Source: an uncultured Pseudomonadota bacterium (GTDB lineage Bacteria; Oederibacteriota; Muellerivitia; Muellerivitales; Muellerivitaceae). Taken from it: a stretch of DNA of 64,000 nucleotides. The stretch lies in the NCBI GenBank assembly GCA_963836235.1, contig CAWIIP010000002.1, positions 1,990,120-2,054,119 on the forward strand, given 5' to 3'. The translations under genes and the position numbers were made by a program. Positions 45,530 through 50,800 of the stretch are shown here, piece after piece. Numbering within the stretch: position 1 is the first letter of the stretch; each line of letters opens with the position of its first letter. The notes under the pieces are model-generated. The model saw only the letters and a program-made list of their open reading frames with translations. It did not search any database and was not told where the DNA came from.

Positions 45530-46195
45530 ATGCCCCCGAAAAATGTTTCGCCGTCCAAACGCCGCAATATTCCCGAACCCACCATCGCCCGGCTTCCGCG
45601 TTACTTGCGGAGTTTCGCCGAGTTTATGCAGAAACATCAAGTGGTGATTTCCTCCAAGGAGCTGGCGGCCGTTTCCAGCATCAACCCCGCACAGGTTCGT
45701 AAAGACTTGGCTTACTTTGGCCAGTTCGGCCAGCGGGGAATCGGCTATGACGTCAAAATTCTCGATGGGAAGATGCGGGAAATATTGGGCCTGCATAAGG
45801 CCTGGAGAATCGCGCTGGTTGGCGCCGGTAACCTGGGCACGGCCCTTTTACAATATGGCGGCTTTTCAAAGGCGGGCTTCAAAATCGAGGCGGCTTTTGA
45901 CGTGGATCCCTCCAAAGTGGGATGGGAATTGGAAGGGGTCCGTATTTGGGCCACCCCGGCCATCAGGCAAGTCGTGCGGGAAAAGAAGATCGAGATCGGG
46001 ATCATCGCGGTCCCCGCCAGCCAGGCCCAGCGGGTCGCCGACGACCTGGTGGACGGGGGCATCCGGGCCATCCTCAATTTCGCGCCCTGTATTTTGACCG
46101 TCCCCAAGTCGGTGATCGTCCGAGGGGTGGATTTAGCCTCCGAATTGGAAAACCTGACTTACTTCCTCGAAAAGTCCAGCAAGGCTGAAAAATAA
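45530..46195 (+). CDS. rex: Redox-sensing repressor Rex
   Basis: IPEPTIARLPRY, QVRKDLAYFGQFGQRGIGY, GAGNLG, ILNFAP. Confidence 0.96.
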   Translation: MPPKNVSPSKRRNIPEPTIARLPRYLRSFAEFMQKHQVVISSKELAAVSSINPAQVRKDLAYFGQFGQRGIGYDVKILDGKMREILGLHKAWRIALVGAGNLGTALLQYGGFSKAGFKIEAAFDVDPSKVGWELEGVRIWATPAIRQVVREKKIEIGIIAVPASQAQRVADDLVDGGIRAILNFAPCILTVPKSVIVRGVDLASELENLTYFLEKSSKAEK

Positions 46196-46274: not shown

Positions 46275-46925
46275 ATGAAAAAAACGTTAAAAGTTATTGA
46301 GACCAAAACATTCCAGGGGTTTCGGAAAATGTACCACGTTTTGGCTTCCTCCTTATTTCCCTTGGCTTACCTTTATCCTCCTTTTCACTGGGGCACACCT
46401 GAAATCCGTAAATGGCTATTAATCGTTTCGGGAGCTTGTTTCCTCATCTCCTTTTCCCTGGATTTTTTAAGATTGAGGGACCATAAATTTAATTCCTGGT
46501 TCATGGGTATTTTTTCTGAATTTATCCGCCGGACCGAAACCAACAAATTCAACGGCTCAACCTTTCTTTGCCTGGCTTTTTTCCTAGTCATCTTCTTTTT
46601 TTCCCGCAACGTGGCCATGACCGCCATGTTTTTCCTTTCCCTGGGGGACGCCGCCGCGGAATTAGGAGGGAAGAATTTCGGACGCCTGAAAATTTTCGGA
46701 AAATCGCTGGAAGGAACATTGGCCTTCTTCCTGGTCGCCTTCCTGACCGCTTACGTGCTTTTCGAGAATTGGCAGATCGCCTTTATCGGAGCCCTGGTGG
46801 GGGCTTTGGTCGAACTTTTTTCGTTCGATTTGGACGACAACCTCACGGTACCCATAGGTTCAGCCTTGGCCCTTTCTTGCGCGGTGGTCTTGTTTCATGT
46901 CGGTAATGGTCTTTTTTCCTTTTAA
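46275..46925 (+). CDS. Polyprenol/phytol/DAG kinase (CTP-dependent) family protein
   Basis: RKMYH, LGDAAAELGG, KSLEG, DDNLTVP. Confidence 0.85.
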   Translation: MKKTLKVIETKTFQGFRKMYHVLASSLFPLAYLYPPFHWGTPEIRKWLLIVSGACFLISFSLDFLRLRDHKFNSWFMGIFSEFIRRTETNKFNGSTFLCLAFFLVIFFFSRNVAMTAMFFLSLGDAAAELGGKNFGRLKIFGKSLEGTLAFFLVAFLTAYVLFENWQIAFIGALVGALVELFSFDLDDNLTVPIGSALALSCAVVLFHVGNGLFSF

Positions 46926-47136
46926 AAGTTATTCTCCTAAAAAATCCGAATAACCCCCCAAGGGCCGGTTTCAGTCCTTGAGCCGCCGTTAAAAAACTAA
47001 CCATTTGTTCAATATATGCCTAAGGATTTAAGGTTTTTCCAACTCGGCTTGCACTAAAGTCCTTCCCGCCCGTCTAAACCATAGATAAAGTTTAAAAGAA
47101 TCAGCCTTTTTGCCGAGAAGGTAACCCGTTACCTTT

Positions 47137-47152
47137 TGGCATATTTGATGCT
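47137..47152 (+). promoter_or_regulatory. sigma54 -24/-12 promoter
   Basis: TGGCATATTTGATGCT (GG-N10-GC); same TGGCATA...TGCT frame as the promoters at 10945 and 15547. Confidence 0.7.
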
Positions 47153-47179
47153 TTTAATTATGCTGAAGTTAGAGTCACC

Positions 47180-47463
47180 CGCTTGCAAGCGATGCCTCGG
47201 AACCGAAGTATGTTGTTTGAAATGGTACCCGGCCCTTTTTTCCACAGTCAATTCAGCTCAGGAAAAAAGGGCGTGCCCAGCGGCCTTGCGAATTTAAGCG
47301 CAAGCGAAACTGGGGGGAAGTTGCCCAATGCTTCACCTACCCTCATCCCCTAATTCGATCTTGGCTTTGCCAAGAAAGAGGATATGAGGGTCACCCAGTC
47401 CTCCTTTGTCCGGGTTTTACCCGGTTCGGTAGAGGGACGGGGTACGGATGCCGGAAAGCGAGG
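47180..47463 (+). ncRNA. Putative large structured RNA (leader or ncRNA), family not recognised
   Basis: Five nested hairpin arms closed by long-range stems, identified by eye (see findings); ORF-free. Confidence 0.6.
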
Positions 47464-47468
47464 AAGCC

Positions 47469-47624
47469 ATGGATGAGAACTGCGGTAGGATTAACCGACT
47501 GCTGAACTTGTACCGGGCTGGAAAATTGACGGAGGAAGAGAAAGCTGACGTGGAATATCATTTACTTTGTTGTCCCGAATGCATATTCCTGTTGACCCTT
47601 GTTCCGTCGTTGAGCCACGAATAA
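47469..47624 (+). CDS. 51-aa stand-alone zf-HC2 (anti-sigma-type Zn finger) protein, below the ORF-track cutoff
   Basis: Hand translation MDENCGRINRLLNLYRAGKLTEEEKADVEYHLLCCPECIFLLTLVPSLSHE*; Cx..HxxxCxxC pattern; GAGGA RBS. Confidence 0.8.
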   Translation: MDENCGRINRLLNLYRAGKLTEEEKADVEYHLLCCPECIFLLTLVPSLSHE

Positions 47625-47652
47625 GTTCTGTTTCAATAAAATTGAATGCCAT

Positions 47653-47680
47653 GAGCCCGCCCTGCCCGGCGGGCTTTTTT
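47653..47680 (+). terminator. Intrinsic terminator
   Basis: AGCCCGCC-CTGCCC-GGCGGGCT followed by a T-tract. Confidence 0.85.
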
Positions 47681-47847
47681 GTATAACTTAAAAATGAGTT
47701 TTTTTGTTTCTTGGCCCTTTTTAGCCCTTTCTTGACTTTCCCCGGAACTTCGTCAAAAATCATCCCGCATTTTATTTAACTGCCCAGGGATTTCTGCGCC
47801 TAGGAGCGCGGAAAGCCCTTATTGTGTTTACGGCAAAAGCTTGGAAT

Positions 47848-50800
47848 ATGGAAAAAACCGAAGAAACGGCGGCGGCCTCCGCGCCCAAGTCGCCTTTCGC
47901 TTTTGAAAAGCTCTCCTGGCCCGCCGCCGAAGAGGCCTTTCAAAGCCTCAAGGCCGGAAAATCCCGAACCCTTATTCATGGCGTTCCGGGATCGGCAAAA
48001 TCTTTTCTGTTGGCCTGGTTTTACCGGAAACTCCGGGAAAAAAATCCCTGGCTCCTCGTGACTCCCACCCGGGAAGAAGCCTTGTCCCTGCAAGACGATC
48101 TTTCCACTTGGCTTCCGGAGGTTCCCGTCTATCTTTGCCCTTCCTGGGAAACCCTTCCCCAAGACGTGGAAACGCCCGATCCGGAACTCATCGGGGAACG
48201 CCAGCGGACCTTCTACCGGCTGACGCAGGGCGAAGCCTGTATCGTGGTGGCCCCCCTGATGGGCGCCCTTCAAGGCACCATGACCCCGGACGAATGGATC
48301 GATGAGGTGCTTATCCTCAAAAAAGGCCAGGAGGTCCCCGCGAACTTAAAAGAAAAACTGGTGTCCCTAGGATATGAACCCGCCACCCAGGTGGTCCAAC
48401 TGGGGCAGTTCGCCATGCGGGGCGGTATCCTGGACCTGGCCTCGCCCGGTTCCCCCTCGGGCCCCGTGCGGCTGGAGCTTTTCGGCGACACGCTTGAGTC
48501 GGTGCGGCCCCTTGATATCCTGAACCAACGCTCCAGCGGCAACCTGGAAGAGGTTTTTGTTTTTCCGGCCCACGAGATCGTCCTCAAGGACGAGACCCGC
48601 TACAATTTGCGCCAGGCCCTCAAAACAAAAGCGAAGGCCGTAACGGAAAAAACACCCTCGCGCTGGGCGCAAGAGGCACTGGATCTTTTCGGCCAGACCC
48701 ATCAGTTTCCCGGCTGGCAGTGGCAGGGGGTTGGGGCCTTGGAAAAGAGGGCCTGCCTTTTCGACTACCTGCCGAAGGAGACCCGCGTCTTTTTGATGGA
48801 ACCCCTGGCTTTCGAACGCAAGTGGGAAGAACTACAGGACCTGTTTTCAAGCTGCAATAAACAGGCGAAAGACGACGGCTCGGACCTTTTTGACGCCGAG
48901 GATCTTTTTTCCGATATCGGCTTCCTGAAAAAGGCCCTGGGGAAAGGACAGGCCTCGGGCCTTTCCCAGATCGACCAGGATCTTTTCCAGGAACCGGCCG
49001 ACTTTTCCCACGCGGTGCCCGGGCGGTCCCTGGCGCCTTATTACGGCAAATTCGCCACCTTTACCGGCGACCTGAAAAAATGGCTCAAGGAACCACCGGA
49101 TAGTTCGGATATTTCCCGGAAATCCCAGGTCCTTCTTTGGTGCCATAACAAGGGAGAAAGGGAAAGACTCTCGGAGCTTTTGCGCCAGGAGGATATCGTC
49201 CCCAAGGACAACCCACAGCTTTCCATGGTCCTGGGCGAAATCGAGCAGGGTTTCGCCTTTGATGACATCCAGCTTCACGTCCTGCCGGACCACGATCTTT
49301 TCCGCCGCTACCGGGGCCGGCGCCTCCGGCGGATCCGGGCGGTTTCGGGCGGCAAGCCCCTTTCCTCCCTCAGCGAAATCTCCATCGGCGATTGGACGGT
49401 TCACGTCGACAGCGGCATCTGCCTCTACCGGGGACTCACCCCCCTGGCCATCGACGGGGTCACTCGGGAATATATCCAGCTGGAATTCGCAGATAGCGAA
49501 AAGATTTACCTGCCCACGGACCAGATCGCCCTCATCCAGCGCTATATCGGAAGCGAGGGGTCGCCGGTCCTCTCCAAATTGGGAGGGGAGCAATGGAGTA
49601 AGGCCAAGGCCAAGGTGAAAAGGGAGGTCGAGGCCATCGCGCGGGAACTGATGGCCCTCTATTCCACCCGCCAGGTTTTAAAAAAGCGACCTTTCCCGCC
49701 CGATACGCCCTGGCAGCATGAGTTCGAGGACGCCTTCCTTTACGACCTGACGCCCGGCCAATACACCTCGGTGCGGGACGTGAAGCGGGACATGGAATCC
49801 GACCGGGTTATGGACCGCCTCGTTTGCGGCGACGTGGGTTATGGAAAGACCGAGGTTGCCATGCGGGCGGCTTTCAAGGCGGTGCAGGACCATCGGCAGG
49901 TGGCGGTCCTGGTGCCCACCACCATCCTGGCCCAACAGCATTACAACACTTTCAAGGAACGCATGGGCGAATACCCGGTGGAGATCCAGATGCTGTCGCG
50001 TTTCCGTTCCAAGGCTGAAATCAAGAAGACCCTGGACCTGGCCCGGGAGGGAAAGGTGGACATTGTCATCGGCACCCACCGGCTTTTGACCAAAGACGTG
50101 CGATTCGCCAATCTCGGCCTTTTGGTCATTGACGAGGAACACCGTTTCGGCGTTTCCCAAAAAGAAAAATTAAAGGCCCTCAAACATGACGTGGATGTGT
50201 TGACCCTGACAGCCACCCCCATTCCTCGAACGCTCCACATGTCCCTCTCCGGCATCCGGGAAATCTCCGTGATCGACACCCCGCCGAAAAACCGGCGGTC
50301 GGTGCTTTCCCAGGTTTCTCCCTTGGACGACCGGCTGGTGGCGGAAGCCATCCGCCGCGAGATGAACCGGGAAGGGCAGGTTTTTTACGTCCATAACCAC
50401 GTAAAGGACATTGAGCGCATCGCCGACCGCCTGCACAAGCTGGTGCCCGAGGCTAAGCTGGGGGTGGCTCATGGCCAACTGACGGAGCATGAATTGGAAT
50501 CCATCATGTTGGATTTCGTGGACAGGGAATACCACGTGCTGGTCTGCACTTCCATCATCGAGTCGGGGCTGGACATGCCCAACGTGAACACCCTGATAGT
50601 GGAAAGGGCTGACGCCTTCGGGTTGGCCCAGCTTTACCAGTTGAAGGGCCGGGTGGGGCGAACGGATCGGCAGGCCTACGCCTATTTCTTCTATCCCCGC
50701 CACGTGACACTTCGGGAACTGGCCCAAAAGCGCCTGGAGGTGCTGCAGGAATTCTCCTCGCTGGGCTCGGGCATGCACGTGGCCATGAAGGACATGGAAA

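Follow-up and report, generated by a model that had tools for sequence, protein, structure and literature searches.

An anti-Shine-Dalgarno strand that can pair with either of two partners is known from translational riboswitch platforms, from RNA thermometers and from hok mRNA with its long-range 5'-3' pairing. A comparable arrangement was found in the leader of a sigma54-type unit that encodes a 51-amino-acid (51-aa) zf-HC2 zinc (Zn)-finger protein. The unit lies in a 64,000-nt stretch of contig CAWIIP010000002.1 (the whole stretch is referred to as the window, and coordinates are those of the window unless another contig is named). In common with the described leaders, a 5' strand here is complementary to the ribosome-binding site and can be captured by a neighbouring copy of that site's word, and the two pairings have similar energies. 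On the other hand, the leader has no Rfam match, and its most distant relatives have not retained the arrangement.

The unit belongs to an uncultured soil bacterium and is without an Rfam description. Within candidate division FCPU426, one family has conserved this putative regulatory unit. We interpreted it, with a probability of about 0.6, as a sigma54-dependent monocistronic mRNA for a minimal protein of the zinc-binding anti-sigma (ZAS) type, with a conserved cis-acting 5' leader. The original prediction had seen a large five-armed non-coding RNA (ncRNA) in this region. The leader is best read as a probable cis-acting translational leader of the mRNA for an anti-sigma-like protein, and not as a large stand-alone RNA.

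In this form the locus would offer a testable regulatory unit in a candidate phylum without a cultured member, in which a sigma54 promoter and a two-state leader precede the gene for a minimal Zn anti-sigma-like protein. Among the literature matches listed for FCPU426 there were only surveys. No paper naming both zf-HC2 and sigma54 was found in the literature searched.

The unit and its conserved leader core

As read from the sequence, the order on the + strand was a sigma54-type box, about 305 nt without a conserved open reading frame (ORF), the zf-HC2 gene and a terminator:

47137-47151, + strand: sigma54-type box TGGCAT-ATTTG-ATGC, GG at 47138-39 and GC at 47150-51, in canonical spacing
47469-47624, + strand: zf-HC2 gene of 51 codons, stop at 47622-24
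47653-47682, + strand: intrinsic terminator, stem at 47653-47676 of 9 bp (7 G-C), then TTTTTGT

When the coordinates were re-checked by hand, the features of the original prediction (box, ORF-free leader, mini-ORF, terminator and arms) were all present in the sequence, the terminator with its 9-bp stem and T-run after the ORF. The suggestion that no known RNA family is involved also held: with Rfam release 15, the whole window gave no match at the gathering score. At E <= 10, 15 matches were obtained in 46900-47850, every one of them far under its gathering score. None of the 15 fell within the + strand leader at 47183-47590, and those at 47590-47690 corresponded to the terminator.

The genome under study (G000) was compared with a same-genus relative (G001) and with the family holding them (f1, 31 genomes). 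A total of 58 loci, with 44 distinct leaders among them, was gathered from genomes and metagenomes; comparisons of the core cover only loci carrying the zf-HC2 gene. The distance from the box to the ATG ranged from 75 to 317 nt across the 44 distinct leaders.

Alignments of the leaders revealed three conserved blocks, GAGYCRCCCGCUUGCMAGCGAYGCCUCGG, UUGCCCAAUGC and GGAUGCCRGAAAGCGAGG, between which other modules come and go. The blocks were chosen by pattern, which excluded one sequence from the first block and two from the second. Their pairwise identity in 17 group-I leaders was 85%, 94% and 95%, respectively. In the ORFs of the same 17, third codon positions were 56% identical, and first and second positions 87%. 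The leader core was therefore more conserved among relatives than the synonymous sites of the gene (85-95% versus 56%). The conserved part is a core of 65-100 nt, of which the second and third blocks are located in G000 as follows:

47321-47331, + strand: motif UUGCCCAAUGC, 94% pairwise identity in group I, forming the loop of arm H3 of the original prediction in G000
47445-47468, + strand: 3' block CGGAUGCCGGAAAGCGAGGAAGCC, 95% identity in group I

In L043, L044 and L095, which at 65-70 nt are the shortest leaders, the motif was missing. The 3' block contained the 3' strands of two helices, P2 (47445-52) and P1 (47456-68), together with the Shine-Dalgarno sequence GAGG (47460-63). The block was kept even though relatives do not share a start at ATG 47448.

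A 58-aa frame starting at 47448, which appeared in the ORF listing, was rejected. The frame between this ATG and 47469 was broken in relatives, and the 51-aa ORF therefore has the real start. A leader peptide was also considered and discarded: neither ATG 47448 nor the ATG inside GCGAUGCC was conserved, and the frames were broken in relatives. There was no conserved upstream ORF, in agreement with the description of the leader as ORF-free.

In G000 the leader has been stretched from a core of about 70-100 nt to about 305 nt. This apparent growth is made up of the lineage-specific arms H1 and H2 plus a repeat, comprising H4 and H5, whose insertion separates the motif from the 3' block. Hairpin-forming inserts of 50-100 nt were seen in other leaders as well, either between the box and the 5' hairpin (L031, L030, L027, L026, L024 and L090) or between this hairpin and the 3' block (L041). 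RNAalifold proposed that GGUA pairs with UGCC in the motif, a pairing that was rejected. It failed in L030 and L027, in which the motif was altered and GGUACC unaltered.

Contigs from four metatranscriptome runs, 90-97% identical to the window, covered 47179-47671. One of them (contig X3, record 7) joined the leader to the ORF, without 47338-47443. This supported the co-transcription of leader and ORF put forward in the original prediction, with DNA carry-over possible. In another RNA-library contig, 47202-47314 was replaced by 18 other letters. The variant positions listed among the contigs within the ORF were mostly at third codon positions (13 of 17). No contig lay on 47000-47178 or 47672-47800, and the contigs are not evidence for transcript ends.

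Two alternative folds at the ribosome-binding site

The proposed mechanism involves the following elements:

47176-47194, + strand: hairpin A, stem CGCU/AGCG at 47180-83/47188-91, extended by the pairs C47176-G47194 and A47177-U47193
47174-47184, + strand: 5' strand of helix P1 in minimum-energy folds, that is, the anti-ribosome-binding-site strand GUCACCCGCUU
47224-47231, + strand: 5' strand of helix P2, GGUACCCG, pairing with CGGAUGCC (47445-52) in the minimum-energy fold

The 5' strand C(C/U)CGCUU was complementary to the adjacent AAGCGA and also to a second occurrence of this word, AAGCGA(GG), within the ribosome-binding site. The core of the leader consists of the 5' hairpin, the motif UUGCCCAAUGC and the block GGAUGCC-RGA-AAGCGAGG, the last holding the ribosome-binding site. 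The 5' strand can enter either the local hairpin A or the long-range helix P1, which buries the ribosome-binding site. The balance of these two folds would set the yield of protein per transcript.

Both pairings were found among the relatives. Support was expressed as the share of alignment cells that pair, with the same helix with its partners slid as the control. For hairpin A, with 31 distinct sequences compared, the paired share was 82.3% (17-50% when slid), and its extension pair covaried (GC 10, AU 7, GU 4, UA 1).

In the minimum-energy fold of G000, P1 was formed by CCCGCUU (47178-84) with AAGCG-A-GG (47456-63). P1 closed the whole leader in the minimum-energy folds of G000 and most short leaders. 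In 23 short leaders, the structure that includes P1 had 87.8% of cells paired (32-51% when slid). The core helix of P1 was 95.6% paired in 23 sequences, and all three flanking pairs (3/3) were altered on both sides. Evidence for P2 came from helices 3 and 4 of the short-leader alignment, with 94% and 73% of cells paired, in which only nine sequences had letters and these were almost invariant.

The helices proposed in the original prediction to close the arms, GTACCC (47225) with GGGTAC (47440) and CCTCG (47195) with CGAGG (47459), were present in the sequence. They were, however, not used by the minimum-energy fold, which contained GGUACCCG/CGGAUGCC and P1 instead.

Because their strands overlap, hairpin A and P1 are mutually exclusive. 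According to the energy model, the median difference between the two was -1.7 kcal/mol, and P1 was favoured in 27 of 39 leaders. Many G-U pairs were present in the structure, which therefore belongs to the + strand RNA.

Several results weigh against a translational leader of this kind. The predicted unpaired probability of the ribosome-binding site averaged 0.26, versus 0.30 with shuffled upstream leaders, and was lower in 29 of 42 leaders. Such accessibility is like that of the shuffles, and thermodynamics alone does not single out sequestration. Leaders free of the repeat folded no better than shuffles (median z = -0.9). The core of P1 was nearly invariant, so that its support is conservation and not covariation.

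L048 and its kin form the most distant group, and here the strand paired with the ribosome-binding site was another, separate word (GUCACGCU or GUCCCCCGC). These leaders can form hairpin A simultaneously, and competition between the folds is therefore not universal. Concerning the product, no cognate sigma gene adjoined the ORF, the neighbours being a 235-aa membrane protein without a Pfam match and mfd. Finally, the RNA-library contigs show neither RNA ends nor strand, and may include DNA carry-over.

The choice between the two folds might also be made by a signal. The conserved core could be a new sensor RNA, in which a metabolite, a metal or a protein picks hairpin A or burial of the ribosome-binding site and so gates the 51-aa protein; we hold this only tentatively. 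We consider it unlikely that the core is a ligand- or protein-sensing element in the sense of a novel riboswitch or of an operator recognised by an RNA-binding protein, with the signal stabilising one fold.

About 60 nt are conserved beyond the need of base-pairing, as a sensing element would have it, and the motif UUGCCCAAUGC is conserved without a supported stem, although L043, L044 and L095 do without it. No aptamer-like covarying junction was definable, and no junction was common to all 44 leaders, yet two exclusive folds lie close in energy and have no Rfam match. The element is also restricted to one bacterial family, ahead of one gene. As for a protein signal, CsrA was not found in G000, the genome being 99.4% complete. 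Binding of CsrA to the GGA-rich 3' block was rejected on the same finding.

The five arms and a dispersed repeat

The arms of the original prediction, and the copies of the repeat to which two of them belong, are located as follows:

47232-47272, + strand: H1, GCCCTTTTTTCC/GGAAAAAAGGGC at 47232-43/47261-72
47276-47314, + strand: H2, CCCAG/CTGGG at 47276-80/47310-14
47317-20/47331-34, + strand: H3, GAAG/CUUC, a stem around the motif UUGCCCAAUGC in G000
47338-47445, + strand: copy of the H4+H5 repeat, about 108 nt, flanked by TA(Y)
C2:558358-558468, C4:335379-335488, C2:1770516-1770635, C2:1377550-1377657 and C2:1156268-1156372: other copies of the repeat in G000, outside the window, found with model R1 (below)

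The region 47160-47470 gave a folding energy of -122.9 kcal/mol on the + strand, versus -101.8 (standard deviation 5.7) for dinucleotide shuffles (z = -3.68), and none of 100 shuffles was as good. The minimum-energy fold contained H1, H2, H3, H4 and H5. In these two respects the G000 leader behaved as predicted. The - strand of the same region gave z = -3.29.

Over the 44 leaders the median z was -0.9, and z was below -2 in six. Four of these six carried the repeat (z of -3.1 to -3.6); the other two were L041, with another long insert, and L034. The leader of G001, which is free of the repeat, had z = -1.46. Low z followed the repeat among the leaders, and the fold energy of G000 is therefore largely that of the repeat itself.

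A covariance model, R1, was built from five leaders with H4+H5 and searched in the 31 genomes of the family. Matches were obtained in 17 of the 31. There were eight at six places in G000, some on both strands, and genus g5 gave 30, 25, 27 and 20 (G020, G044, G005 and G045, respectively). BLAST of the 311-nt leader against its own genome returned only the leader itself. As the other copies emerged only with the covariance model, BLAST was too insensitive here.

The repeat was about 105-120 nt long, with the ends TACCCTCAT...ACTGTGTAA. The six copies of G000 and 20 fetched from relatives aligned end to end, with shared ends and four stems showing compensatory changes. In the five leader sequences, H4/H5 had 95.2% of cells paired. 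A repeat family maintaining its hairpins would be expected to show such pairing.

Presence and absence of the repeat were seen at the same site. G001 matched the query as two adjoining pieces, without 47341-47443. The same difference was found between L034 and L103, and in an RNA-library contig that skipped 106 nt. The empty site reads CCTAT|GG and the filled site CCTAC[...]GGGTAT|GG, with a single TAY when empty and TA(Y) on both sides when filled. This suggests, from few empty/filled comparisons, duplication of a TA(Y) target. The repeat ends in TAC...GTA, and its terminal inverted repeats are weak.

Copies of the repeat in leaders were nearest to other leader copies, not to copies in their own genomes. 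This would fit a single ancient insertion with subsequent loss in many lineages. The leader repeat has been kept in at least three genera with its helices intact, and may therefore be a co-opted spacer arm.

Four papers (PMC2649163, PMC2229807, PMC3184786, PMC10969869) describe small non-autonomous repeats co-transcribed with genes, such as the Correia repeat enclosed elements of Neisseria, other MITEs (miniature transposable elements with inverted repeats) and repetitive extragenic palindromes and their mosaic elements (REP/BIME). H4+H5 shares with these a size of about 108 nt, many dispersed copies, hairpins, a place in a transcribed leader, and presence or absence among close relatives. On the other hand, its sequence is unrelated, its terminal inverted repeats are weak, and it has two tandem hairpins instead of one long one.

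Copies of the repeat also occurred directly 3' of the mini-ORF, at the position taken by the terminator hairpin in other genomes (G020:C108:2141-2251, locus L129, and G044:C198:2552-2656, locus L124).

The module H1+H2 was present in 8 of the 44 distinct leaders, from four genera, and always followed GGUACCCG. Each of the eight formed two hairpins despite differing sequence. In these, 88.1% of cells were paired (38-75% when slid), and 9 of 16 pairs were altered on both sides. A model of H1+H2 (R2), built like R1 as a control, gave strong matches only at its own training loci. On the eight loci, the other H1+H2 modules scored weakly (10.8-20.3 bits) and L103 was missed, so R2 is insensitive to diverged copies. 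The alignment made with R2 included chance matches and was left aside. H1+H2 are true RNA helices, specific to the leader, single-copy and specific to lineages.

For H3, the best closing stem around the motif averaged 3.7 bp in 26 sequences, versus 3.3 bp with shuffled flanks; several of the pattern matches were misplaced. The closing stem was thus no longer than with shuffled flanks, and H3 did not stand as a conserved hairpin. Covariation of the arms was found in part. Compensatory changes were present in H1+H2, though in only 8 of 44 leaders; H3 was unsupported, and H4+H5 is a repeat.

The idea that the region of about 300 nt is an independent structured ncRNA, acting in trans or in a particle with the Zn-finger protein, now appears improbable. 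It had drawn on the strong fold of G000 (z = -3.68) and is helped by the helices with compensatory changes. However, the single large five-armed RNA is not kept as such: H4+H5 is dispersed and not in G001, H1+H2 occurs in 8 of 44 leaders, and the remaining arm is unsupported, while leader length ranges from 75 to 317 nt. Between leader and ORF there is neither a terminator nor a conserved 3' end; the RNA-library contig continues from one into the other, and the 3' block is the ribosome-binding site.

The locus is at the same time a cautionary case, in that a dispersed repeat within a leader accounted for the high fold score as well as for most of the seeming arms. Screens for RNA discovery in repeat-rich metagenome genomes should check the arms for dispersal before a large structured RNA is called.

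Promoter, protein and terminator

The strict box TGGCAY-N3-[TC]NATGC was found ahead of the gene in 52 of the 58 loci. Of the six without it, two were at a contig end, one was a spurious hit, one was a diverged paralogue and two, with one shared sequence, were boxless. The genome of G000 encodes rpoN (Sigma54_DBD, 214 bits, at C5:123290-123766). The sigma54 box of the original prediction was thus confirmed at 47137-47151. A transcription start is predicted near 47164.

The -12 consensus of sigma54 promoters is TTGC. The promoter here shares with described ones the GG/GC spacing, rpoN and a palindrome about 150 nt upstream; it differs in its -12 element, ATGC, and in having no linked activator gene. 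Two palindromes were located:

46988-47001, strand not applicable: palindrome GTTAAAAAACTAAC, at a distance of 149 nt upstream from the sigma54 box
47120-47133, strand not applicable: palindrome GGTAACCCGTTACC, immediately upstream of the -24 element

The first may be a binding site for an activator or a different kind of regulator. Among 46 distinct upstream regions, 12 had a GTTAA-N4-TTAAC-like site between -146 and -152 with no more than one mismatch. In the alignment, GTTAAC-like words also preceded the box in relatives. GTTAAAAAACTAAC resembles the Rex-type operator consensus. A Rex-like gene (Pfam Put_DNA-bind_N and CoA_binding) is present in the window at 45530-46195.

The conserved words could in principle act as DNA, as a repressor operator or roadblock or as promoter architecture. 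The word CGCTTGCAAGCG, 30 nt downstream of the box, is perfectly palindromic at the DNA level, and further palindromes flank the promoter. The distance between the box and hairpin A, however, is 20-32 nt in most loci and 64-92 nt in six, and the hairpin is therefore not tied to the promoter. G-U replaces G-C or A-U in hairpin A (UG 5, GU 4) and in P1, which would leave these positions mismatched in DNA as well as on the opposite strand, and the 3' block is the ribosome-binding site. Taken with these, action as DNA is highly improbable.

Least probable of all is an ordinary untranslated region that gathers insertions without a regulatory role, for which frequent insertions and deletions, ordinary fold energies without the repeat and shuffle-like accessibility of the ribosome-binding site could be quoted, but not a core 85-95% identical beside synonymous sites at 56%, nor the pairing of hairpin A and P1 kept across genera.

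The 51-aa product matched Pfam zf-HC2 (PF13490) with 31.1 bits, above the cutoff of 22.2, as expected of the stand-alone zf-HC2 mini-ORF in the original prediction. C5, H31, C35 and C38 were invariant in 14 sequences, giving H-x3-C-x2-C plus an N-terminal Cys. The AlphaFold model had three helices and a mean predicted local distance difference test (pLDDT) score of 82.8. The best Foldseek matches were RsiW (PDB 5wuq) and RslA (3hug), with TM-scores of 0.66-0.72 yet E > 1, which is weak. By hidden Markov model, the best sequence matches among solved structures were RslA and ChrR (2q1z), with E = 0.018-0.026.

RsrA is also a ZAS-type anti-sigma factor. With the ZAS anti-sigma factors RsiW, RslA and ChrR, the 51-aa protein shares the Zn motif, the zf-HC2 match and three helices; it differs in having no fourth helix, sensor or membrane part. 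Membership of this family suggests that the protein may have anti-sigma activity.

The protein was present in 29 of the 31 genomes of the family. When 99 genomes of the phylum were compared, this family alone gave full-length matches (>=85 bits), and elsewhere just the N-terminal domain of far longer frames was matched. A profile search of a large protein collection gave 79 clusters, all short and mostly unnamed.

Paralogues of zf-HC2 occurred across the family. In genus g12, two full units of sigma54 box, leader and ORF were present per genome, in differing neighbourhoods (L008 and L038 in G012; L036 and L051 in G022). In G000, a paralogous zf-HC2 mini-protein of about 61 aa was located at C2:1462878-1463024 (- strand), with its own sigma54-like box TGGCACGAACTCTGCA and a short leader. 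In this leader, CUUCCC was complementary to the Shine-Dalgarno sequence GGGAGG.

The sequence of the terminator hairpin was kept after the ORF in relatives. The hairpin word GCCCGCCCTGCCCGGCGGGC was also found at other places in relatives (G020:C108, G012:C12 and G005:C31), with 93-100% identity. It may be a shared type of terminator or another small repeat.

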